64,000 nt of DNA from Minisyncoccota bacterium (GTDB lineage Bacteria > Patescibacteriota > Minisyncoccia > Phycocordibacterales > UBA9973): the NCBI GenBank assembly GCA_041661005.1, contig JBAZVG010000001.1, positions 6,019 to 70,018 of the forward strand, in the 5' to 3' direction. The notes beneath the pieces were generated by a model that saw only the letters and a program-made list of their open reading frames with translations, did no database searches and was not told the origin of the DNA. This document shows positions 4,840-62,725 of the stretch, piece after piece. Each line of letters opens with the position of its first letter. Positions within the stretch are counted from its first letter, which is position 1. Made by a program: the position numbers and the translations under genes.

Positions 4840-6438
4840 ATGAAAAATTCCCCTTTAATTTACGGACTCCAAAGACCCAACGATAAACCTGATTTGATTT
4901 TAGTTAATTCACCAATAAGAGATTATACAGATGAAGAGAGACAGGAAACAGAACAATTACCAGCAATAGGCTTAGGATACATTGCAACTGTGTGTGAAAA
5001 AGCAGGTTTCAATGTTGGTTTGCTGGATGTAGAGGTTAATGGTTTGTCACCAGAAAAAGCAGCTGAAATAATTAATGAATCAAACCCTAGATGGGTTGGT
5101 GTTAATATGCTCACGCCAACTTTTCCTTTAGCTAAAAGAATTATTGCAAATATAAATAAGGGTATTCAAATTGAAGTTGGTGCTGCACATTCAAAAGCAT
5201 TATCAGAAAAAATATTAAGAGATTCAGAAATAGGTCACAAAATTGATTTAATCGTGCTTGAAGACGGTGAATTAATATCAAAAGGACTTCTTGAGGGAAA
5301 GAATCCCAGCGAAATGGGTGGGGTTGCTTATATAGACAAGTCTTCTGGTCAATATATTGAACACAGAGGAGACCCAGAAGGAAAATGGATTCCTAAAGAT
5401 TTAGATGCCTTACCATACTTGAATAGAAAATTTTTTAAAAATGGAATAATCAAATCGGAAGGAAGATTGGAAGCAAATATTGTAGGATCTCGAGGATGTC
5501 CTTTTTCTTGTCCATTTTGTGCTGGTGCAAAAGAAATGTTGATATTTGGGATTCGACAACGATCCATAGAAAATATTGTACAGGAAATAAAAAATCTAAA
5601 AGAACAAGGAGTAACGGCGATTAGATTTATTGATGATTTATTTTTATCAAGTCCAGCTCGCATAAAGCAATTTTTTAAACTAATGACTGAAGCAGGATTA
5701 AATGAACACGTTGTATGGGATGCAACAGGTAGAGCTAATATATTATCAAAACTAGACAAAGAAACATTAGAATTGATGGCGCGTAGTGGTGCTAGAGAAA
5801 TATCAATAGGCGTAGAGTCGGGATCACAAAGAATGCTCGATCTTATGAATAAAGGAATTAAACCAGAAATGGTAAGAAGCGCTATAGTAAATTTGGCATC
5901 TGTAGGAATACGCACAAAAACATATTTTATGTTGGGTATTCCTTCTGAAACGGAAGAAGAAGCGAAAGAGTCCGTAGCATTTATGCACGAATTACGTAAT
6001 CTTGCCAGAAAGACTGTTGCTGAGAATCCATTAACTCCAACAGGTAAACAGAATGAGGCTCAAAGTAGAGGAAGTATGTTTATTTTTCGACCATATCCAG
6101 GAACCCCTTTTAGTGAGCAGTTACAGGGTAAAAAAGAGTGGCCAGAAGGAACATGGAAAAATTCAGAACAACCATTATTTACAGAAGAAGAGATACTTGA
6201 GAGTTTTCATCCAACAACAATAAAACCTGGATTAGAAGTAAGACAAAAACATAGTTTCAGTACAACATTGCAATTGGGACCCTTGGAACCATCAAAAATA
6301 CAAGAAATGGTAGATGGTGCCATGCTCGCACAAAAGGAAGATATGGTTATACACGGGGAGTATTTGCCAGGCATAAAAGAAATAAAAGCTGAAAATAATG
6401 GAATAAATAAAACAGGAATGCCGTGGCGTATTGCTTAA
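4840..6438 (+). CDS. Cobalamin-binding-domain radical SAM enzyme (class B radical SAM)
   Basis: 532 aa. The N-terminal ~130 aa form a B12-binding-like Rossmann segment (LILVNSP...IGLGYIA...VGVNMLT). The CX3CX2C cluster is GSRGCPFSCPFCAG, and a TIM-barrel radical SAM core follows. Confidence 0.75.
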   Translation: MKNSPLIYGLQRPNDKPDLILVNSPIRDYTDEERQETEQLPAIGLGYIATVCEKAGFNVGLLDVEVNGLSPEKAAEIINESNPRWVGVNMLTPTFPLAKRIIANINKGIQIEVGAAHSKALSEKILRDSEIGHKIDLIVLEDGELISKGLLEGKNPSEMGGVAYIDKSSGQYIEHRGDPEGKWIPKDLDALPYLNRKFFKNGIIKSEGRLEANIVGSRGCPFSCPFCAGAKEMLIFGIRQRSIENIVQEIKNLKEQGVTAIRFIDDLFLSSPARIKQFFKLMTEAGLNEHVVWDATGRANILSKLDKETLELMARSGAREISIGVESGSQRMLDLMNKGIKPEMVRSAIVNLASVGIRTKTYFMLGIPSETEEEAKESVAFMHELRNLARKTVAENPLTPTGKQNEAQSRGSMFIFRPYPGTPFSEQLQGKKEWPEGTWKNSEQPLFTEEEILESFHPTTIKPGLEVRQKHSFSTTLQLGPLEPSKIQEMVDGAMLAQKEDMVIHGEYLPGIKEIKAENNGINKTGMPWRIA

Positions 6439-18676: not shown

Positions 18677-19077
18677 GGGGATGCAAGGCATAGACAGTTG
18701 GACTTTTGTCATTGATGCATACTGAGAATGGACGTAATCTCGTAAAAATTCGTCCAATAGCTTAATTGCAAAATTAGCTTCCAAAGTGAAAGCGGCAGTC
18801 TCTCCATACTTCGGTATGAATGACTTTGCTTTCGCTTCAGTTTCCGCTTCGGCGTAACTGATGTCTCTCTTATAGACTTCCGATATATAAGGGCAGGCAC
18901 AATATTATCGGGATAGGAGAAAGACTGTTCTGACTTTCTTTCGAAACAAAGGAACTCGATTAAAAAATATTTGGCTCGTTTAAGAATTTTTTAATTTAAA
19001 CAAAAAAGCGCGCTATGTATGTAGACTTCTTTACAAAAACCTTCTGCACGGGGATTCGATTTCCCCCATCTCCACCA
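18677..19077 (+). ncRNA. ssrA: tmRNA (ssrA), one-piece, CCA encoded
   Basis: 5' ggggatg pairs with 3' catctcc, including a G3:U70 wobble (the Ala identity element). T-arm gggga-ttcgatt-tcccc, then A-CCA. An internal ORF ...NDFAFASVSASA-TAA is a plausible tag. Located 137 nt downstream of smpB. Confidence 0.75.
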
Positions 19078-21666: not shown

Positions 21667-22039
21667 ATATATTCCCTTAGCATATACTTGCTTCAGCGTC
21701 TTTCCTTTGTTGGAATGACGTTTTAATTTCCGCCAGGGGCGGATAAATAACTCTCTTTGACAATAGAATGAATTATTGAGAACAGGTGCAAGTCTGTTCT
21801 GTTTTTTTGAGTAAGCCCCGACGTAAAGTCGGGGTCCCGACCCTGAAATTTAATTTAGGCGTCGGGATAGAAATAATTTTTAGAGCAAAAGATTGAACTC
21901 TAACAAGTAACAAAAATAATACTGAGGAGCGCAAGCGACGGATGTACTGTTTTTTGTTTTGTTTCGTTCCTAAATCAAAATGCTTTGCATTTTGATCGGA
22001 CGATCCGCCTTTGGCGGATTTAGTCTGTAACTTTTATTT

Positions 22040-23590
<1,551 letters not shown>

Positions 23591-23874
23591 TTGAAAACTG
23601 TCCCAATTTTTATTTATAAAAATTGAGGATCCCGCCATAGGCGGGATCCTGGTCTCGCCCCGCGAGACTGGACTAATTGAGTCGGTATTGTGTCGCTCAA
23701 TTGACGACACAATAGTCTAAGTATGTTGTGGACTTAAAGAAACATATTGACAGAGAGGAAAGACTCTTAAGTTAAAAAGAACGAAACAAAACAAAGAACA
23801 GTTCACCCCGCCATGGCGGGGCAAGCAAACAAAAATACCTCGCGCAAGCGGGGTATTTTTGTTATAATTTTATT

Positions 23875-40766: not shown

Positions 40767-42059
40767 ATGAAAAATTTTCAGATTGTAACTATAATCGTAT
40801 TCATTGCTCTAGCTGTTTTTGGCGTTTTGGTTTTTTCCGGCGCGATCCCGATTGGGGACGACAATACTCCCGGAGGATTGGGTACTGTAGTTTTATGGGG
40901 AACGATAAATGGAACTACATTGGCGCCGCTCTTGGAAGAGTTTAATAATGTTAATCCGACTTTTACAGTAAAATATGAACAAAAGGGGATTAATAATTTT
41001 GATCAGGAGCTGCTTGAAGCGCTGGCTAGCGGTGTGGGACCGGACATGTTTTTCTTGCCCGATGATCTCGCGTTTCATTATGCCAATAAAATTTTCCCTA
41101 TCCCATACGAGAGTTATCCTCTAGTCTCTTTTAAGAACAATTTTGCAAGCGCAGGCGAAGTATTTTTGACTTCACGCGGTATTTTAGCTTTTCCATTGTC
41201 TATTGATCCACTGATGATGTATTACAATCGTAGCCAGCTGGATGCTAATGGAATTATTCGCCCGCCAGTTTTATGGGATGATCTGGTTGATATGGTGCCG
41301 AAACTTACCAAGAAAGATGATTCAAATAAAATATCCAAAAGCGCGGTTGCGTTGGGGCATTTTTCAAATGTTACCCATGCCAAAGACATTTTGTCCGCTC
41401 TTTTTATGCAGACGGGGAATAGCATTGTCACGGAGCAAAATGGGGTTTTCAATACAAACCTTGATACGCCCAATCCAAAATACAACCTCGCATCGATCTT
41501 AAAATTTTACACTGGTTTTGCCGACCCAAACAACAGAGATCTATATTCCTGGAATAAATCATTTCCTAATTCCAGTGATTCATTTTCCAGAGAAGATTTG
41601 ACGTTTTATTTCGGATTTGCGAGCGAACTTGTGCCCTTGATAAATAAAAATCCCAATCAAGATTTGGCTGTCGCGCCTATTCCGCAAATCAAAAATTCGA
41701 ATTTCAAATTGACCACGGCGCAAGTGATGGGGATAGCACTACTATCATCATCTAAGAATTTTAATACAGCTTTTACAGCAGCGAGCCTCATGGCTACAGG
41801 AGATTTTGCTTCCAAGTTTGCTGTCGCTTTAGGGGTGGCGCCAGCCCGTCGCGACCTGCTCAAGGTGAAGCCAACAGACGCTTATTCCCCAATTTTTTAT
41901 GATTCAGCTCTCTATGCAAAAAGCTGGCTTGACCCTAGAGAAAAGGATACAGACAACATCTTCCGTAACATGATCGATGGAGTGCTATCGAACAACATGA
42001 CTGTCCAAAGCGCGATATCTGATGCCAGCGCGAAAATTAATTTATTATTGCAGAGATAA
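40767..42059 (+). CDS. Extracellular solute-binding protein (ABC transporter, family 1-like)
   Basis: N-terminal TM/lipobox-like anchor; 430 aa with SBP_bac_1-like composition. No cognate permease lies adjacent. Confidence 0.55.
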   Translation: MKNFQIVTIIVFIALAVFGVLVFSGAIPIGDDNTPGGLGTVVLWGTINGTTLAPLLEEFNNVNPTFTVKYEQKGINNFDQELLEALASGVGPDMFFLPDDLAFHYANKIFPIPYESYPLVSFKNNFASAGEVFLTSRGILAFPLSIDPLMMYYNRSQLDANGIIRPPVLWDDLVDMVPKLTKKDDSNKISKSAVALGHFSNVTHAKDILSALFMQTGNSIVTEQNGVFNTNLDTPNPKYNLASILKFYTGFADPNNRDLYSWNKSFPNSSDSFSREDLTFYFGFASELVPLINKNPNQDLAVAPIPQIKNSNFKLTTAQVMGIALLSSSKNFNTAFTAASLMATGDFASKFAVALGVAPARRDLLKVKPTDAYSPIFYDSALYAKSWLDPREKDTDNIFRNMIDGVLSNNMTVQSAISDASAKINLLLQR

Positions 42060-42099: not shown

Positions 42100-42915
42100 A
42101 TGCAAATTCAAGAAATAAAAAAAAACGCTATTCACTCCCGCAAACCAATTTTGTTATTTTGGCTATCTATCATTGTTGCAGTCGGACTTTTGAGTCCTAT
42201 AACAGAAATAAATGCGCAGGCGTCGAGGAAGGCACCGTGTTTTATCCCCAATGGGGACGGGACAGGCGGTAGAGTTTTAACGATGAATCGACAGGAATGC
42301 GAATCGTTTTTTGGAACATTTGATGCCACTTCGGCTCCAGCACGGGAGATAAGGGGTGAAAATCCTAGCGATATTGACTGCATTCTCTATGACGCGGATG
42401 GGGTATCAAATCCTAGAATTGTAAGGATGACTCGAATTGTATGTGAATCCTATCATGGAACACCTAGTGCAGCGAATCTTGGCACGGGTCAACCTGCCAC
42501 TGGTACTAATGTTAATTCGGCTCCAGTTGTCGCTCCCACTCAGTCTGTTACTGTATTTTCTTTTGCAGAGATAGACACGGATAAACCAGATGTTGAGGGA
42601 GGCTTGGTGCCCTGTGGTCATCCGGATGCTCAAGGTAATATAACTAACCCCTGTAGTTTCAAGGATGCTCTAACTCTCATAAACACCATAATAAAGTTTA
42701 TTCTTTTTGATTTAGCGATTCCGATTGCCGCCGTGATGTTCGCTTATGCGGGTTTTAAACTGGTAACTTCCGGAGGTAGCTCTGAGGCTAGGGGGCAGGC
42801 GAAAAATATTTTCTCCAACGCAGTTTTTGGGCTGGTGATTGCCGCTGGCGCTTGGCTCATTATCAGGACGATATTATCAGTTTTGGGTTATCAAGGGGCT
42901 TGGATTGGATTTTAA
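42100..42915 (+). CDS. Secreted protein, paralog 1 of a five-member tandem family with a C-terminal two-TM pilin-like module
   Basis: Signal peptide, Cys-containing N-domain, C-terminal IPIAAVMFAYAGFKLVTSGGSSEARGQAKNIFSNAVFGLVIAAGAW. Nucleotides 42130..42500 are near-identical to 42975..43345. Confidence 0.45.
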   Translation: MQIQEIKKNAIHSRKPILLFWLSIIVAVGLLSPITEINAQASRKAPCFIPNGDGTGGRVLTMNRQECESFFGTFDATSAPAREIRGENPSDIDCILYDADGVSNPRIVRMTRIVCESYHGTPSAANLGTGQPATGTNVNSAPVVAPTQSVTVFSFAEIDTDKPDVEGGLVPCGHPDAQGNITNPCSFKDALTLINTIIKFILFDLAIPIAAVMFAYAGFKLVTSGGSSEARGQAKNIFSNAVFGLVIAAGAWLIIRTILSVLGYQGAWIGF

Positions 42916-42951: not shown

Positions 42952-43686
42952 ATGAGGAGAAATTTTAACAAACCAATTTTGTTATTTTGGCTATCTATCA
43001 TTGTTGCAGTCGGACTTTTGAGTCCTATAACAGAAATAAATGCGCAGGCGTCGAGGAAGGCACCGTGTTTTATCCCCAATGGGGACGGGACAGGCGGTAG
43101 AGTTTTAACGATGAATCGACAGGAATGCGAATCGTTTTTTGGAACATTTGATGCCACTTCGGCTCCAGCACGGGAGATAAGGGGTGAAAATCCTAGCGAT
43201 ATTGACTGCATTCTCTATGACGCGGATGGGGTATCAAATCCCAGAATTGTAAGGATGACTCGAATTGTATGTGAATCCTATCATGGAACACCTAGTGCAG
43301 CGAATCTTGGCACGGGTCAACCTGCCACCAGTACTAATATTAATTCGTCTCCAGTTGTCGCTCCCACTCAGTCTGTTACTTATGATTCATCTCCATGTAT
43401 TGGCAAGATCTGCAACCCTCTGGGTACTAAAGGGGTAGCCAGTATCCCAGCTTTCATTCAAAAACTTTTAGAAGGCGTCTTGCAGATTGGCATACCCATC
43501 GTGGCGCTCGCTATCATTTATTGTGGTTTCCTGTTTGTGGCGGCTCGGGGTAATTCGGAAAAATTAGGCAAAGCCAAAGATGCCCTGCTCTATACCCTGA
43601 TCGGCGCGGCGATACTTTTGGGGTCGTGGGCTATTGCGCAGATGATATCCGCTACTGTCACTGGACTTGGGGCTGGAGTAGTATAA
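42952..43686 (+). CDS. Paralog 2 (recent tandem duplicate of paralog 1 over the first ~125 codons)
   Basis: Identical N-domain. C-terminal GIPIVALAIIYCGFLFVAARGNSEKLGKAKDALLYTLIGAAILLGSWAI. Confidence 0.45.
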   Translation: MRRNFNKPILLFWLSIIVAVGLLSPITEINAQASRKAPCFIPNGDGTGGRVLTMNRQECESFFGTFDATSAPAREIRGENPSDIDCILYDADGVSNPRIVRMTRIVCESYHGTPSAANLGTGQPATSTNINSSPVVAPTQSVTYDSSPCIGKICNPLGTKGVASIPAFIQKLLEGVLQIGIPIVALAIIYCGFLFVAARGNSEKLGKAKDALLYTLIGAAILLGSWAIAQMISATVTGLGAGVV

Positions 43687-56660: not shown

Positions 56661-57473
56661 ATGGTTAGACGTTGGACAAAAAAAGAAGAAGGCAAGTATC
56701 GATCAGAACTTTTTAAGATTTATGTTAAACAGAATAAAAGTTTGGGTGAGGTTTCAAAAATTTTAGATATATCGGAGCAAGCAGTTTTTCGAAGATTGGG
56801 GCGTTTGGGGATTAAAACACAACCGCATTTAAAAAAGAATTACTTAAAAAAGCGGATTGATGTACGAATTCCAGATAAATACTCTGAAGATCTGGCGGAA
56901 TTTTTTGGTATTATGCTTGGTGATGGGCATATAAGTCATTTTCAAGTTGTGGTTAGCTTGGGTAATAAAGAAGAAAAATATGCAGAATATGTCAAATCGC
57001 TTATCAAGAAAATATTTAAGACGAATGTAAAAATTTCCCTTCGAAGTAAGGGATACCGAGATGTTTATCTTGGTTCAGTGGCTATAACATCATGGCTCCT
57101 TAAGGAAGGGCTTGTTCACAATAAGGTCAAATCACAGGTCGATGTGCCAATGTGGATATTTAGTAAAAATAATTTTATAAAGCGTTTTTTAAGGGGATTT
57201 TTTGACACTGACGGATCGGTATACAAATTAAAATATGGTATTCAAGTGTCCTTTTGCAATCGGTCTTTACCGATACTTCTATCTTTACAAAAGATGCTTA
57301 AAAAGTTAGAATACAATCCGTCACGTTTAAGTTCGTATAATATGTATCTTACTAAAAGGGAAGATGTTAAAAGATTTTTTCAGGAGATCAAACCATCTAA
57401 TCCTAAACATGTAAGTAGATATTTAAACATTTCAAACAACATGCGTCGGTCGGATAGTGGCTATTCCAGGTGA
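56661..57473 (+). CDS. LAGLIDADG-family homing endonuclease (two motifs, single-chain) with N-terminal HTH; free-standing
   Basis: Motif 1 LAEFFGIMLGDGHIS, motif 2 FLRGFFDTDGSVY, N-terminal SLGEVSKILDISEQAVFRRLGRLGI. The last 31 nt of the ORF overlap the tRNA-Tyr 5' end. Confidence 0.75.
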   Translation: MVRRWTKKEEGKYRSELFKIYVKQNKSLGEVSKILDISEQAVFRRLGRLGIKTQPHLKKNYLKKRIDVRIPDKYSEDLAEFFGIMLGDGHISHFQVVVSLGNKEEKYAEYVKSLIKKIFKTNVKISLRSKGYRDVYLGSVAITSWLLKEGLVHNKVKSQVDVPMWIFSKNNFIKRFLRGFFDTDGSVYKLKYGIQVSFCNRSLPILLSLQKMLKKLEYNPSRLSSYNMYLTKREDVKRFFQEIKPSNPKHVSRYLNISNNMRRSDSGYSR

Positions 57474-57524
57474 CTGTAAATCACCCGCCTTCGGGCATCG
57501 TTGGTTCGAGTCCAACCCGGCGCA
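57443..57524 (+). tRNA. tRNA-Tyr (anticodon GTA), type II
   Basis: Acceptor gcgtcgg/ccggcgc (one U-G), D-arm gga/tcc, anticodon stem ggtga/tcacc, loop ctGTAaa, long variable arm cgccttcgggcatc, T-arm gttgg-ttcgagt-ccaac, discriminator A. Confidence 0.8.
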
Positions 57525-57585
57525 CAATAAAAATCCACCTTTTTACTTCATGAAGTTTTCATCTATACTGTAATAGTATAGATAT

Positions 57586-58128
57586 ATGTTAAAATTTGTT
57601 TTATCAATATTCATTATAACGTCTTTTGGATTTTACGTTTTTCAGCAGAACGTGATTGGTTCTGCTAATATTCCATCAGTGCCGGTGGTTGCTACTGGTC
57701 CTAACGGCGCAGACAACAGTACAAAAAAAACTACTAAGCCTACTACGGTCGTTAGAACCACTCCTGTTGTAAATAATCCTCCTTCTAAATCTATGATGAA
57801 TAATGGGGGGATGATGGGAGGCGGAGGAATGATGAATCAAGGCACTTTTAGAAATGGTGAATATGTAGGCTCTGTTGCTGATGCTTATTATGGATATGTG
57901 CAGGTGAAAGCGGTTATCACAAACGGCAAGCTTTCGGATGTTATTTTTCTGGATTATCCTCAAAGCAGATCAACTTCTGTTCGGATTAATTCATACGCCA
58001 TGCCTATTTTGAAACGAGAAGCCATCATCGCTCAAAGCGCGAATGTTGATGCTGTTTCAGGAGCGTCTGCTACCAGCCCGGCTTTTGTGAAATCTTTAAC
58101 ATCTGCTCTCAATCAGGCAAGAATATAA
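57586..58128 (+). CDS. Secreted/membrane-anchored FMN-binding domain protein (FMN_bind)
   Basis: N-terminal anchor, Gly/Met-rich linker. The C-terminal FMN_bind fold ends in NVDAVSGASATS (the flavinylation Ser/Thr site motif). Confidence 0.6.
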   Translation: MLKFVLSIFIITSFGFYVFQQNVIGSANIPSVPVVATGPNGADNSTKKTTKPTTVVRTTPVVNNPPSKSMMNNGGMMGGGGMMNQGTFRNGEYVGSVADAYYGYVQVKAVITNGKLSDVIFLDYPQSRSTSVRINSYAMPILKREAIIAQSANVDAVSGASATSPAFVKSLTSALNQARI

Positions 58129-58205
58129 AATATTACTTGTCCCGTACTAAATTTTAGATTACGGGACATAAAGATAGACATTATTAATAAAATTTTAGTA
58201 CTGGG

Positions 58206-58949
58206 ATGAAAAAACAAAGAACTATAATGGGAATGTTGGCAGTTGTAGAAATAGTTGATTTAAATGCGACTGATAGGATATTTGAAGAAGTTTTTGATTA
58301 TCTGGTTTCTGCGGACGAAAGATTCAGCACATATAAAAAAAATAGTGAAATAACTTTATTTAATGAAGGGAAAAAAATTGATAAAAAAAACTTGAGTACT
58401 GATATGAAAGAAGTTCTTGAGCTTTCGGAAGAGACAAAGAAAACCACGAATGGATTTTTTGACATTACGCGCAATGGAAAAATCGATCCATCTGGTCTTG
58501 TAAAGGGTTGGGCAATTCGTAACGCATCGCTTATCTTGCGAGATAGGGGGTTTGAAAACTTTTATGTAGAAATTGCCGGTGATATCGAGGTTGCGGGATT
58601 AAATAGCGAGGGGAAAAAGTGGGCTATCGGCGTCAGAAATCCATTTAATAAAACAGAGAATGTAAAGGTGGTGTATTTAAGCGAGAGTGGAATTGCCACT
58701 TCTGGCACATATGAAAGGGGAGGCCATATTTACAATCCTAAACAATCGGATGGAATGATCGGGGATGATGTTGTTAGCTTGACGGTGATAGGTCCGAATA
58801 TTTACGAAGCTGACAGATTTGCAACCGCGGCTTTCGCCATGGGTAAAGACGGAATATTGTTTATAGAAAAATTGCCTGGTTTTGAGGGATATATGATTGA
58901 TAAAGATGGTGTTGCAACATTAACAACTGGATTTGAAAAATATACATAG
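58206..58949 (+). CDS. apbE: ApbE-family FAD:protein FMN transferase (short form)
   Basis: GFFDITRNGKIDPSGLVKGWAI, GVRNP, SGIATSGTYERGGHIYNP match the ApbE core. Confidence 0.6.
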   Translation: MKKQRTIMGMLAVVEIVDLNATDRIFEEVFDYLVSADERFSTYKKNSEITLFNEGKKIDKKNLSTDMKEVLELSEETKKTTNGFFDITRNGKIDPSGLVKGWAIRNASLILRDRGFENFYVEIAGDIEVAGLNSEGKKWAIGVRNPFNKTENVKVVYLSESGIATSGTYERGGHIYNPKQSDGMIGDDVVSLTVIGPNIYEADRFATAAFAMGKDGILFIEKLPGFEGYMIDKDGVATLTTGFEKYT

Positions 58950-60480
58950 CATGAAACCTGTCATTAAGTTTATGGATGATTTCTTAAATAGGACAACGAT
59001 GTACAAAGTAGTTTTGTATTACTTGATTGTCCTTTGGATAGTAGCATTTGTATTCAGTTTTTTTAATTTATTGTCTTTTACGCCGATCTCAATGATGATT
59101 TCTTTGGCTATCTTGCTTAGTGCCTCTTACATTACCAATCGCGCTTTTGCCTATGTTTTTAGAGTTCCGGCCAATGCGGAATCTATTTATATTTCTGTTT
59201 TTATTCTTGCATTGATTATTACTCCCGCATTGACACTCGCTGAATATATTTTTCTTGGTTGGGTTGGGATTTTAGCCATGGCATCAAAATATATTTTTGC
59301 CATTAAACATAAACATGTTTTCAATCCGGCAGCATTAGCTGTTGCGGTCACCGCTTTTTTTCTTAACCAAGGCGCAAGTTGGTGGATTGGGACGATTTCA
59401 ATGATGCCGTTTGTATTTTTAGGTGGATTGATTATTGTCCGAAAAATTAAAAGAAAAGATCTCACTTTTAGTTTTTTCATCGTCGCTCTCTTCACTATCG
59501 TGATTTCTAGCTTATCAAGTGGTGGAGACGTTGTCAGCACTCTAAACAGAACGATATTTTATTCTCCAATTTTGTTTTTCACATTCTTTATGATCACCGA
59601 TCCGCTAACTGCACCATCTTCGCGATTTTTGCGTATTTTATATGGAATAGTTGTGGGATTTATGTTTGCTCCAGCAGTACACATAGGAGCATTTTATTTT
59701 ACTCCCGAAATCGCATTGTTGTCTGGAAATATATTTTCTTATCTGGTCAGCTCAAAGAAGAGATTGATGTTGAAACTTAAAAAGATTGTTCAACATACTT
59801 CCGATACCGTTTCGTTTATTTTTACCCCCGATTCTTCGTTTGTTTTCAAGCCGGGGCAATATTTGGAATGGACTTTAGGGCATCATGGAATGGATAGTCG
59901 TGGTAATAGGCGTTATTTTACGATTGCTTCCTCTCCCACAGAAAAAGAATTGCATCTGGGTGTTAAATTTTATCCAAATGGGAGCAGTTTCAAAAAGGCA
60001 TTGTCGGGCATGAATGACGACGACACTATTTTTGCTTCACAACTTTCGGGAGATTTCGTTTTGCCGAGAGACAAGAAAAAGAAACTGGTTTTTATCGCTG
60101 GTGGTATCGGCATTACTCCTTTCAGGAGTATGATCAAGTATTTGATTGATACGCAACAAAAGAGAGATATATTTTTGATTTATTCTAATAAAAAAGAAAC
60201 AGATATAGTCTATAAAAATATTTTTGATCAAGCTTCTTATGATTTTGGTTTGAAAACGATCTACACATTGACTGATATGGAAGATGAGCAAACAAATTGG
60301 AATGGAAGGAGAGGATTTATTGATGGAAAAATGATATTGGAAGAAATAAAAGATTGGCGCGAAAGAACTTTTTATATTTCTGGTCCTCCCTCGATGGTTT
60401 CCGACACCGAAAAAATAATTAAAAATTTGGGTCTCAGTGGCAAGCAAATAAAAACCGACTTTTTTCCGGGGTTTGCCTAA
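58933..60480 (+). CDS. Fusion protein: RnfD/NqrB-like polytopic membrane domain + C-terminal ferredoxin-NADP reductase-like FAD/NAD(P)-binding domain
   Basis: The N-terminal ~300 aa are multi-TM with HVFNPAA and FFMITDP (RnfD/NqrB-type motifs, including the flavinylated-Thr TDP-like site). The C-terminus has RRYFTIASSP (R-x-Y-S/T FAD-binding motif) and FIAGGIGITPF (NAD(P)-binding). Confidence 0.55.
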   Translation: MKNIHSMKPVIKFMDDFLNRTTMYKVVLYYLIVLWIVAFVFSFFNLLSFTPISMMISLAILLSASYITNRAFAYVFRVPANAESIYISVFILALIITPALTLAEYIFLGWVGILAMASKYIFAIKHKHVFNPAALAVAVTAFFLNQGASWWIGTISMMPFVFLGGLIIVRKIKRKDLTFSFFIVALFTIVISSLSSGGDVVSTLNRTIFYSPILFFTFFMITDPLTAPSSRFLRILYGIVVGFMFAPAVHIGAFYFTPEIALLSGNIFSYLVSSKKRLMLKLKKIVQHTSDTVSFIFTPDSSFVFKPGQYLEWTLGHHGMDSRGNRRYFTIASSPTEKELHLGVKFYPNGSSFKKALSGMNDDDTIFASQLSGDFVLPRDKKKKLVFIAGGIGITPFRSMIKYLIDTQQKRDIFLIYSNKKETDIVYKNIFDQASYDFGLKTIYTLTDMEDEQTNWNGRRGFIDGKMILEEIKDWRERTFYISGPPSMVSDTEKIIKNLGLSGKQIKTDFFPGFA

Positions 60481-60528
60481 GAATTCATTCTTCATGAAAT
60501 TTTCATCTTACAGTGATATCATGTAGGC

Positions 60529-61197
60529 ATGAAGATATTAGTTGTTGAGGATAATAAAAAGCTGGCAGAAAACCTAAAGCAGGGGCTTACCCAAGAAGGG
60601 TATGCTGTGGATGTGATTGAAGATGGGCTTGTGGCAGAACGTCGAATCTTAATTAATCGTGATGAATATGATCTTGTTATTCTCGATCGAATGCTTCCTG
60701 GAAAAGACGGGACTTCAGTATGTGCTTCTTGGCGTGAAAATGATGTCATCGTTCCAGTACTGATGCTGACTGCTCTCGATACTACGGATGATAAGGTCAT
60801 AGGTCTAGATGCAGGCGCGGATGATTATCTAACCAAACCTTTTGCTTTCAAAGAACTTTTAGCTCGTATCCATGCGTTGTTGCGACGTCCAAAACAAAGC
60901 ATACCCTCGGTGCTTATTTCTGGAGATATTAGTGTCAACACCACGAGCAGAATCGTAACTCTTAAAAATAAACCAATTTCTCTAACCCTGAAAGAGTTTA
61001 TGGTGTTAGAATATCTAATGCGCAATCAGAAGAAGGTGTTTACTAGAGATGAGCTTTATTCGCATGCTTGGGATTTTGCGGACTCATCTTTTAGTAATAC
61101 TGTCGATGTGCATATAAAAAATCTACGAAAGAAAATAAATGATAATGGAAAAATTATACAAACAATTCGTGGAGTTGGTTATAAGATGGAAGGTTAG
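60529..61197 (+). CDS. OmpR-family response regulator
   Basis: Receiver domain KILVVEDNKKLA...LVILDRMLPGKDG, then winged-helix output LTLKEFMVLEYLMRNQKKVFTRDELY...VDVHIKNLRKK. Confidence 0.85.
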   Translation: MKILVVEDNKKLAENLKQGLTQEGYAVDVIEDGLVAERRILINRDEYDLVILDRMLPGKDGTSVCASWRENDVIVPVLMLTALDTTDDKVIGLDAGADDYLTKPFAFKELLARIHALLRRPKQSIPSVLISGDISVNTTSRIVTLKNKPISLTLKEFMVLEYLMRNQKKVFTRDELYSHAWDFADSSFSNTVDVHIKNLRKKINDNGKIIQTIRGVGYKMEG

Positions 61198-62170
61198 TCG
61201 CAAGATTGATGAATTCTTTATTGCGCGACTTCGTCTTACTTTTTATTATTCCATCACGGCAATAATAATTTTAGGTGGTTCGAGTATTATACTTTATAAA
61301 ACAATTCTTTCGAATCTAACGGATTCTATTTCAGAGGATATATTTTTAGATCCGCGTATTTATCAAGCAGTCATAGATAGAGCGCAGGATATACTGCTCA
61401 ATCGTTTTTTAACGATAGACCTTATCATAATATTTTTTATTATAATATTGGGTTTCTTGCTTACTCACAAAACATTGGAACCGATTCGGTCTAATATGCA
61501 AAAACAAAAGAGGTTTATTGCGGATGCATCGCACGAGCTCCGCACTCCTATTGCCGTAGTTATCTCTGGTCTTGAGGTTAACCTTAATAATAAAAAGTTG
61601 GATTTGACTTTGGCCAAAAAAACACTTGAAAATACTTTGGATGAAATGAGAGAATTTTCAAAACTCAGCAATAGTCTACTTGATTTATCAAAATATGACA
61701 TGAGAGTGCAAATAGGGTATGAACCCATAGCCATGAGTATATTGGTAAAATCTATCGTAGAAAAAAATAAGAGTCTAGCGAAACAAAAAGATATAAATAT
61801 TGAAACAAAAATAGAATCATCGGCAATGGTTTTTGGCAACAAGATGGAGTTAGGCCGAGTATTTTTTAATATTTTAGATAATGCTATTAAATATACTCCG
61901 CCCAACGGAATTATATCTATCTTGGATAAAGTTTCTAACGGTAAATATATTGTAATCATAAGCGACAACGGCAATGGTATTTCGAAAGATACTTTGGATA
62001 AAATTTTTGATCCATTTTTTAGAGGAGATTTGTCTCGAAGTACGGATGGCGCGGGGCTCGGGCTCACTTTGGCAAAAAAAATCATTGAAAATCACAAGGG
62101 GACTATCTCCATCAAGAGTCAAGTAAACAAGGGCACTAGCGTGGCCATATCTTTACCTATCTCTTCATGA
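61139..62170 (+). CDS. Sensor histidine kinase (HisKA + HATPase_c)
   Basis: Two TMs, H-box FIADASHELRTPIA, N/G boxes NILDNAIKYTP, ISDNGNGIS, GLGLTLAKKI. The annotated start overlaps the RR gene by 59 nt; a later GTG/TTG start is possible. Confidence 0.8.
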   Translation: MIMEKLYKQFVELVIRWKVSRKIDEFFIARLRLTFYYSITAIIILGGSSIILYKTILSNLTDSISEDIFLDPRIYQAVIDRAQDILLNRFLTIDLIIIFFIIILGFLLTHKTLEPIRSNMQKQKRFIADASHELRTPIAVVISGLEVNLNNKKLDLTLAKKTLENTLDEMREFSKLSNSLLDLSKYDMRVQIGYEPIAMSILVKSIVEKNKSLAKQKDINIETKIESSAMVFGNKMELGRVFFNILDNAIKYTPPNGIISILDKVSNGKYIVIISDNGNGISKDTLDKIFDPFFRGDLSRSTDGAGLGLTLAKKIIENHKGTISIKSQVNKGTSVAISLPISS

Positions 62171-62272: not shown

Positions 62273-62725
62273 ATGAAATATAAAAAACAAATTGCAACTG
62301 GTGCCTTGGCGTTGTCGCTCCTAGTTGGAGGCTCTTCTGTTTTTGCTTCCACACCGCAAGATTTAGGTATAAAAGATATACAATCTATCTATCAAAAACA
62401 CGACAAGAATAATAAAAAAATAAAGATTAGAAATAAGATAAAAAACAGTGTCGTGGGGGTCGTGGAATCGATAAATGGTGCTGGTTTTACGATAGATATA
62501 AAAAATATGAAGACGCGAACCATGTTTTCAGCTGATGTCAAAACAAATGTTTCGACTCTATACAACAAAAATGGAATTAATGCGAATTTTTCTGATCTAA
62601 CCATAGGGCAAAAGGTAATCGTTGTGGGGGAGTTAGACAAAACAACGAATATAATAAATGCCAAAATAGTAAAAATTGTTGACCAAAATATGGGTTTCCA
62701 TAGGAATAAAAACAAAATTCAATAA
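62273..62725 (+). CDS. Secreted hypothetical protein
   Basis: Signal peptide; 150 aa; no motif. Confidence 0.3.
   Translation: MKYKKQIATGALALSLLVGGSSVFASTPQDLGIKDIQSIYQKHDKNNKKIKIRNKIKNSVVGVVESINGAGFTIDIKNMKTRTMFSADVKTNVSTLYNKNGINANFSDLTIGQKVIVVGELDKTTNIINAKIVKIVDQNMGFHRNKNKIQ

Follow-up and report, generated by a model that had tools for sequence, protein, structure and literature searches.

A probable NQR/RNF-like flavinylation locus with a compact, leaderless ApbE in a Minisyncoccota bacterium

The Patescibacteria, or candidate phyla radiation (CPR), account for a large share of bacterial diversity and are regarded as symbionts that live by fermentation and possess hardly any redox machinery in their membranes. 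Here, we analyze a stretch of 64,000 nucleotides from one of their members, a Minisyncoccota bacterium (assembly GCA_041661005.1, contig JBAZVG010000001.1, positions 6,019 to 70,018 of the forward strand). The whole of this stretch is hereafter termed the window, and all statements on the absence of genes are made at the level of the locus within it. The system in question is a trio of consecutive genes on the plus strand, coding for an FMN_bind protein of 180 residues that carries the binding domain for flavin mononucleotide (FMN; 57586..58128), a 247-residue ApbE-family transferase that would pass FMN from flavin adenine dinucleotide (FAD) to protein (58206..58949), and a fusion of an NqrB/RnfD-like membrane domain to a module of the ferredoxin–NADP reductase (FNR) type (58933-60480). 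These are followed on the same strand by an OmpR-family response regulator (60529..61197) and a sensor histidine kinase (61139..62170). An initial annotation, read from the sequence without database searches, had listed these five open reading frames (ORFs), all of which we recovered on the plus strand at these coordinates with Pfam and NCBIfam matches that bear out their identities. Judged from sequence and structural models, the locus very probably belongs to the published NQR/RNF-like class. The architecture itself is already in the literature, having been described from sequence in 2021 and 2024, and is not new here; the interest lies in its likely importance for CPR physiology and in the puzzle posed by an ApbE without a leader peptide.

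The fusion protein and its flavinylation partners

The fusion ORF measures 515 codons from its first possible start and runs without an internal stop through a polytopic membrane domain (58951..59766) into the FNR-type FAD/NAD(P)H module (59767..60480), which features the motifs RRYFTIASSP and GGIGITPF. The apbE stop codon (TAG, 58947-58949) lies 1 nt from an ATG at 58951; this ATG or the one at 58972, which is the start given by NCBI, is the likely beginning of the fusion protein, the TTG at 58933 being less likely. The fusion spotted in the initial annotation is intact. An assembly artefact or a split gene is excluded by the continuous reading frame, by homologues of similar length (the best 120 are mostly ~490–520 residues, many of them also with PF03116 in precomputed Pfam calls), and by an identical protein on record (P0001; “MAG: oxidoreductase [Candidatus Paceibacterota bacterium]”, from a metagenome-assembled genome (MAG)) on a contig of 813 kb.

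The membrane domain is recognized by Pfam (NQR2_RnfD_RnfE, PF03116) only marginally. We compared it with known structures in two ways. A profile built from 25 family members and searched against all PDB chains at E ≤ 1 returned only RnfD (8ahx_D, E = 6e-6) and NqrB (E = 0.04 for 7xk3_B and its variants). The domain was also modelled with AlphaFold2; the model, with a predicted local distance difference test score (pLDDT) of 91.6 and a predicted TM-score (pTM) of 0.89, gave RnfD or NqrB for all of the top 15 PDB matches in Foldseek (E 6e-6 to 3e-4), at query-normalised TM-scores of 0.55–0.75. The next matches, at E > 0.1, were urea transporters, which are structurally related to NqrB (PMC10643135). 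A chance sub-threshold match is excluded by these profile and fold searches, and we take the RnfD/NqrB assignment, on the combined weight of sequence profile and model, to be real.

Two features of this domain bear on how it might handle flavins. First, between the helix with the FNPA motif and the following helix the family has ~20 residues in place of the at least 100 found in RnfD and NqrB, which include the flavinylated Thr; thus, the loop carrying the covalent FMN is deleted in the family. In keeping with this, the covalent FMN site (S/T-G-A-T) of the D/B subunit was not found in the membrane domain encoded in the window, and the [ST]GA[ST] motif occurs a single time across 81 fusion proteins. 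Residual flavinylation at the nearest candidate, the Ser of a conserved A-S-W-W stretch, was considered and rejected, as the position is S or T in only 55 of the 81 and has no [ST]GA[ST] motif. Second, the non-covalent pocket is kept. Mutagenesis and cryo-electron microscopy have shown that riboflavin sits close to the cytoplasmic face of NqrB, where it is bound by V161/T162, G198/N200/N203 and T345/D346 (PMC9293633; PMC10643135). When these residues were placed on the 81 fusion sequences through a HMMER profile-to-NqrB alignment, they fell on the most conserved columns of the family: T162 is matched by T or S (81/81), N200 by His (81/81), N203 by Asn (81/81), T345 by Thr (78/81) and D346 by E or D (81/81).

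The C-terminal module has a score of 67.1 bits (E = 2.6e-18) for NAD_binding_1 (PF00175), a weak match to FAD_binding_6, and many FNR-family NCBIfam matches over residues 277–511 of the fusion. A model of the full-length protein (pLDDT 83.2, pTM 0.74) retrieved flavohaemoglobin reductases, GcoB and the FAD/NADH domain of NqrF at E ~1e-16 in Foldseek, with the Streptococcus pneumoniae NOX (8qt6) also among the matches.

The first gene of the trio scores 26.1 bits against Pfam FMN_bind (PF04205; gathering score 22) and codes for a protein that begins with a hydrophobic anchor, continues through a polar linker of low complexity and ends in the FMN-binding domain (~residues 94–178). This domain can be aligned with 8p2a, a flavinylated FMN-binding domain of solved structure (E = 1.6e-11), such that the motif D155-A-V-S-G-A-S161 (58048..58068) is laid over DAVSGAT of 8p2a and its acceptor Thr falls on Ser161 (codon 58066-58068), the predicted FMN acceptor. 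A Ser or Thr in a proper motif, on which the initial annotation had made its reading depend, is hence present. In each of the 51 partner proteins recovered together with that of the window, [ST]GA[ST] stands some 20 residues before the C-terminal end, with D, N or S ahead of it; these partners share an N-terminal plan of MKK, a conserved hydrophobic helix and a linker rich in S, T, N and P. In 12 further divergent partners, forming one clade, SGSS replaces the [ST]GA[ST] motif. From the positive-inside rule, the protein is predicted to be an N-in/C-out membrane anchor with its domain facing outward. The initial annotation had described it as exported; what precedes the domain is an N-terminal membrane anchor with no obviously cleavable signal peptide. 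A profile of the partner domains matches stand-alone flavinylated domains, namely 8p2a (4e-24), 3o6u and 8p2b.

The second gene is an ApbE, as had been proposed: it scores 126.9 bits against PF02424, above the curated threshold, and aligns with the ApbE structures of E. coli, V. cholerae and T. pallidum. It is, moreover, a compact one: about 55 residues of the E. coli enzyme (chain 107–162) are without counterpart in it, and it starts with MKKQRTIMGM, which is the beginning of the conserved core. This is a property of the family, as 52 of the 53 ApbEs encoded in the clusters begin at MK..R..MGMP, with a hydrophobic leader upstream in none; the closest 120 ApbE homologues are equally short (235–256 residues), and a contig labelled Chloroflexota has the same compact leaderless layout. 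A mis-called start that hides a signal peptide was ruled out, as most relatives are without a usable upstream start, the few conceivable extensions lack hydrophobic character, and a length of 235–256 residues is also what independent gene callers arrive at. ATSG, His174 and Asp203 are invariant in the 53 ApbEs and Thr207 is present in 52 of them; we take these residues to be those of FAD/Mg binding and catalysis. Because these core motifs are invariant or nearly so, the ApbE of the cluster is probably active as judged from its sequence, and a degenerate, inactive enzyme is not supported.

Distribution, gene order and genomic neighborhood

A locus scan with one genome per GTDB species yielded at least 80 loci with the fusion gene, to which the counts “of 80” below refer; most of these carry Patescibacteria names. 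With the membrane domain alone as query, 357 proteins were found at E ≤ 1e-30 among 1.84 billion representatives of 50% identity clusters, and since most of these are ~490–515 residues long, the fused form is the standard one. The initial annotation had regarded such a fusion, occurring without other Rnf or Nqr subunits, as unusual; with a named published class, at least 80 loci and 357 clusters, this assessment is no longer tenable. Several Third Party Annotation (TPA) MAGs with a Patescibacteria-type locus (e.g., L017, L022, L024, L029, L052 and L080) are titled “uncultured Gammaproteobacteria” or “Candidatus Saccharibacteria”, titles that may be taxonomic misassignments.

The published census of Méheust et al. 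(2021), which comprises 127 NQR/RNF-like clusters, was restricted to clusters in which a signal peptide had been predicted, and found the CPR “strikingly underrepresented” (PMC8238504). Many close homologues of the fusion have only PF00175 in precomputed Pfam calls. The signal-peptide filter and the sub-threshold PF03116 scores together suggest that CPR members of that census were probably undercounted; likewise, the combination of a leaderless ApbE with an outward substrate suggests that censuses filtered in this way have underestimated CPR flavinylation in general.

The order FMN_bind, ApbE, fusion on one strand is found in 51 of the 69 loci with at least 2 kb of upstream sequence, and the very short gaps between the genes, together with the single nucleotide between the apbE stop and the fusion start, point to an operon. 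The gap between FMN_bind and apbE has a median of 4 nt in relatives (n = 43), so the 77-nt spacer found here (58129-58205) would be a local insertion. It holds a hairpin, GTCCCGTA-13 nt-TACGGGAC (58139..58167, plus strand); when folded, the 83 nt that enclose it (58126-58208) reach −17.3 kcal/mol (z = −3.1). Long, strongly structured spacers at this position were seen among the relatives only in L009 and L015. The hairpin is single-copy within the window, which rules out a repeated element, and it could be an intra-operon attenuator, a stabiliser or an inserted element. Upstream of the operon, between tRNA-Tyr and the FMN_bind gene, there is a sigma-70-like promoter match (TTTACT-16-TATACT, 57542..57569, plus strand) with 9 of 12 consensus positions, which is weak evidence; similar matches occur near background frequency in this AT-rich region.

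The response regulator and the histidine kinase (HisKA and HATPase_c domains, two predicted N-terminal membrane segments), whose gene overlaps that of the regulator by 59 nt, lie immediately downstream of the trio on the same strand, and their membership in the module is uncertain. Together with a small protein they follow the trio only in L001, L003 and L010, the closest relatives (67–74% identity), with which the wider synteny is also shared; a two-component system as a family-wide partner is therefore excluded. In about nine other loci the same slot is taken by an extracytoplasmic function (ECF) sigma factor, a membrane protein, a DUF5666-like protein and an HlyD plus ABC efflux set, and five more loci have the ECF/DUF5666-like set upstream or inverted. 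The gene after the kinase in the window (62273..62725, plus strand), coding for a small secreted protein, matches the profile of this DUF5666-like cluster (E = 1.5e-7), and this homology ties the two-component system first of all to that gene. On sequence grounds, the preferred reading is thus that the pair belongs with the DUF5666-like gene and stands in, within this lineage, for the ECF sigma factor. Another recurrent arrangement of regulators beside the trio was seen in seven loci (L038, L044, L054, L059, L064, L068 and L074), where an ECF sigma factor and a membrane protein of ~250 residues (same strand, no Pfam match, cluster c12) lie directly upstream of FMN_bind. In all, an envelope-type regulator (ECF sigma factor or response regulator and kinase) is found within a few kb of the trio in about 25 of the 80 loci. 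This recurrence, like the immediate adjacency in the window, agrees with the suggestion of the initial annotation that the pair may regulate the trio. Of that suggestion, the identity and adjacency of the pair stand; direct control of the trio is possible but, in our view, doubtful. The adjacency is confined to the three closest relatives, and the slot regularly continues into the DUF5666-like gene, often with the HlyD/ABC efflux set, as the more economical target. A shared operator sequence was not found, none having been searched for.

The immediate neighbors of the locus are tRNA-Tyr, a LAGLIDADG protein, ClpB, the regulator–kinase pair, the DUF5666-like protein and a TypA-like GTPase, and the housekeeping genes of the window include those for SecA, Mur ligases, GyrA, FtsH, CTP synthase, IF-2 and T4SS-pilin-like proteins, along with tRNAs. 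The LAGLIDADG protein is encoded by a free-standing ORF (56661-57473, 270 residues, two LAGLIDADG domains) just upstream of the flavinylation operon and overlaps the 5′ end of tRNA-Tyr(GTA) (57443-57525) by ~31 nt. Farther away, a full-length 16S rRNA gene (22033-23591) has no adjoining 23S or 5S gene and is followed by a D-Ala-D-Ala-ligase-like ORF and tRNAs, an arrangement that points to unlinked rRNA genes. Unlinked rRNA genes of this kind are common among CPR bacteria. The window also has a tmRNA (18677-19077), and tandem paralogues with C-terminal T4SS_pilin domains (42100-42915 and 42952-43686) adjoin a gene for a solute-binding protein (40767-42059). A radical SAM protein of 532 residues with B12-binding character (4840-6438) is encoded amid short ORFs where the window begins; this is the lowest-GC part of the window (~30–33% GC), with a strong GC skew.

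A putative flavin wire and its alternatives

The best-supported model for the locus is a two-subunit transmembrane flavin wire plus its maturation enzyme, to which we assign a probability of roughly 0.6; from sequence and structural models we infer its cofactors, its docking and the direction of electron flow. Electrons from cytoplasmic NAD(P)H would first reach the FAD of the FNR module, at the C-terminal end of the fusion, and would pass from there to a non-covalent flavin in the NqrB-type riboflavin pocket near the cytoplasmic side of the membrane domain. This pocket flavin could then reduce the covalent FMN on Ser161 of the membrane-anchored FMN_bind subunit, which is predicted to dock at the position occupied in NqrB and RnfD by a covalent FMN of their own, before the electrons leave to an acceptor outside the cytoplasm. 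The covalent FMN would be installed by the ApbE of the cluster. The retention of the riboflavin-pocket residues supports the path from FAD via the pocket flavin to the covalent FMN of the partner. No respiratory or quinone gene was found among the 20 largest other ORFs sampled in the window, which fits a quinone-independent route. The use of NADH or NADPH is likewise a matter of inference; a gene of ~800 codons that appears to fuse glucose-6-phosphate dehydrogenase with 6-phosphogluconate dehydrogenase (Zwf-Gnd), called by reading the sequence rather than by a Pfam scan, lies within ~3 kb of the fusion gene in seven loci (including L019, L020, L026, L031, L037 and L071), and this proximity hints at NADPH as the donor. 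The initial annotation had proposed in essence the same thing, a set of parts that would take electrons from cytoplasmic NAD(P)H through the membrane and pass them to an extracytoplasmic, ApbE-flavinylated protein; every testable feature of sequence and structure fits that proposal, which is also the one published for the NQR/RNF-like class (PMC8238504; PMC11334425).

Several observations weigh against this model. The PF03116 score of the fusion, at 27.1 bits, is below the gathering score of 27.7. The profile of the partner FMN_bind domains has no match to NqrC or RnfG at E ≤ 1, so the kinship of the partner to these subunits holds only at the level of the shared Pfam domain. The window encodes no gene for a terminal acceptor, and in the literature that was searched we found no experimental study or assay of any NQR/RNF-like member. 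A further difficulty is one of topology. Of the 53 cluster ApbEs, 52 are devoid of a signal peptide, a lipobox and a membrane segment. In its classical form, ApbE is a lipoprotein that is secreted and acts outside the cytoplasm. Known cytosolic ApbEs serve cytosolic substrates, as with the fumarate reductase of Klebsiella pneumoniae (PMC12052999). With both precedents in view, a leaderless ApbE paired with a substrate predicted to face outward fits neither of them. Hence, of the earlier claim that this ApbE attaches FMN to such sites, the enzyme family and the acceptor motif have held up, leaving the topology as the puzzle.

One way around this difficulty would be cytoplasmic flavinylation, in which the leaderless ApbE acts before or during export of the FMN_bind protein, or in which the FMN_bind domain stays inside. 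The lack of a leader peptide in any of the cluster ApbE relatives examined, the existence of cytosolic ApbEs such as that of Klebsiella (PMC12052999), and the position of the acceptor only ~20 residues from the C-terminus would all suit it. We nonetheless regard it as unlikely: the positive-inside rule and the NqrC/RnfG precedents place the domain outside, the covalent-FMN site of NqrB is periplasmic (PMC10643135), and the partners have no twin-arginine motif, leaving no obvious export route for a folded, cofactor-loaded domain. More improbable still is an ion-translocating miniature Nqr, in which the NqrB/RnfD-like domain would keep a Na+/H+ pathway and couple flavin redox chemistry to ion movement. 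NqrB is considered to conduct Na+ and resembles urea and ammonium transporters (PMC10643135), and urea transporters are indeed the next-best Foldseek matches after RnfD/NqrB. However, the locus is without NqrD/E, NqrA and the redox-driven conformational machinery, the covalent-FMN loop that has been proposed as the channel gate is deleted, and one-way outward transfer of electrons already moves charge with no need for a pump. Given the missing subunits and the deleted loop, an ion-pumping role is thus unlikely.

The remaining alternatives concern where the electrons go. An assimilatory metal reductase, in which the outward FMN would reduce Fe(III), Cu(II) or another metal complex for uptake or detoxification, is a narrower form of the flavin-wire model that names its acceptor. 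Related loci provide hints of this kind. A membrane-anchored cupredoxin (Cupredoxin_1/Copper-bind) directly follows the fusion gene, at ~+1.5 kb, in L061, L071, L073 and L077, and is also found in L008 and L076; its neighborhood includes, on the opposite strand, genes for an M10-like metallopeptidase, for a ZIP transporter and for a regulator of the Fur family. For that clade, the cupredoxin is a candidate extracytoplasmic electron acceptor. In L017, L022, L024 and L029 a group of Fur, YibE/F and ZnuA genes precedes the trio, and the VIT1 iron transporter is present in 6 of the 127 clusters of Méheust et al. (PMC8238504). Against this, no metal-related gene stands beside the trio in the window, which is also devoid of the cupredoxin, Fur/YibE/F/ZnuA and Zwf-Gnd genes; across the family such metal genes occur in only about 10 of the 80 loci, are closer to a zinc (Zur-type) than to an iron set, and might co-occur simply through sub-clade synteny. 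We therefore hold metal reduction to be a tentative option, on a par with that of a fermentative sink or extracellular electron transfer, in which NAD(P)H would be re-oxidised without a respiratory chain by passing electrons to external acceptors, whether soluble or insoluble, or to the host, as a quinone-free counterpart of the flavin-based system of Listeria. The CPR affiliation of the genome, the sampled ORFs without respiratory or quinone genes, the long flexible FMN_bind linker that would let the flavin reach off the membrane, and the nearby Zwf-Gnd genes, whose products generate NADPH, all accord with such a sink. Yet the view is confined to 64 kb of the genome and the support is contextual, with no flavin exporter, multi-flavinylated surface protein or Ndh2 found near the trio. 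It is conceivable, if improbable, that these strands combine: a cytoplasmic ApbE would load FMN before or during insertion, and an all-flavin wire free of quinone, haem and Fe-S would be the main NAD(P)H outlet of these Patescibacteria, which are without a respiratory chain, perhaps toward a surface acceptor such as a cupredoxin or toward the host. If true, cytoplasmic loading would be a flavinylation route not described for any outward-facing substrate.

Should the flavin-wire model hold, flavin-only export of NAD(P)H electrons would be one of the few links in the CPR between the cytoplasmic redox state and the outside, with a bearing on redox balance, metal acquisition or host interaction. 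The system would also be the simplest known derivative of Nqr/Rnf and would lend itself to studying how flavins are handled by the NqrB/RnfD fold. The leaderless ApbE and its outward substrate do not match, which further suggests that flavinylation may take place elsewhere than in the textbook case.

Comparison with known systems

The resemblance to Na+-NQR and Rnf is one of parts. In the membrane domain, the shared features are the NqrB/RnfD fold (TM-score up to 0.75) and the motifs N-x-E, FNPA and T(D/E)P; the partner has an FMN_bind domain with an ApbE acceptor motif like NqrC/RnfG, and the FNR module is like the FAD/NADH domain of NqrF. In contrast, the full six-subunit operon (RnfABCDGE or NqrABCDEF) is not at the locus, which has only the B/D-like and C/G-like parts and is without NqrA/D/E, RnfA/B/C/E, Fe-S carriers and a quinone or ferredoxin site. 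Here, the FNR module is fused straight to the B/D-like subunit, from which the ~100-residue covalent-FMN segment has been deleted, and electron flow is predicted to be one-way outward rather than semicircular. A further likeness is to the NOX/FRE-type, MsrQ-like and PepSY-like systems, in which a polytopic membrane domain is similarly fused to a cytoplasmic FNR-type module and electrons go outward; PF00175 fusions are frequent in flavinylation clusters of the MsrQ-like and PepSY-like kinds (PMC8238504). However, these cross the membrane via two b-type haems in an unrelated fold, whereas the system in the window is predicted to use only flavins in an NqrB/RnfD fold.

The flavin-based extracellular electron transfer system of Listeria, too, exports NADH electrons without a classical respiratory chain by means of an ApbE-family transferase and a surface FMN_bind protein. 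It deploys Ndh2, a demethylmenaquinone pool (DmkA/B), EetA/B, the lipoprotein FmnB as its transferase and the lipoprotein PplA with two FMN_bind domains. The ApbE of the window is leaderless, and neither the locus nor the 20 largest other ORFs of the window code for Ndh2, demethylmenaquinone synthesis, EetA/B or PplA. The cytosolic ApbE of Klebsiella pneumoniae likewise has no signal peptide (PMC12052999), but its substrate is a soluble cytoplasmic enzyme, whereas the sole candidate substrate in the window operon is predicted to be membrane-anchored and outward-facing.

The closest counterpart is the NQR/RNF-like system itself, which Méheust et al. (2021, eLife) defined as a fusion of PF03116 and PF00175 within a flavinylation gene cluster (PMC8238504) and which has been reported mainly from Actinobacteria and the CPR (PMC8238504; PMC11334425). 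The locus studied here has a PF03116-type fold (with a marginal single-sequence score), a C-terminal PF00175, and apbE and FMN_bind genes immediately upstream on the same strand, inside the five-gene range of that definition; as to the signal peptide, the FMN_bind protein has an N-terminal hydrophobic anchor and the ApbE has none. Huang et al. (2024, mSystems), working from an AlphaFold-multimer model of the Ktedonobacter complex, noted that the NqrB/RnfD flavinylation site is not conserved, and placed the flavinylation site of the partner beside the non-covalent flavin site of the membrane subunit, which the covalent flavin may sample (PMC11334425). In our family, the corresponding Thr is gone along with its loop. 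Both studies had independently proposed the same outward direction of electron flow (PMC8238504; PMC11334425). In architecture, then, the locus is identical to the NQR/RNF-like system—a fusion, an apbE and a membrane-anchored FMN_bind protein—and to the existing descriptions we add a compact leaderless ApbE, a riboflavin pocket whose residues are kept, and a PF03116 match that lies just below threshold.

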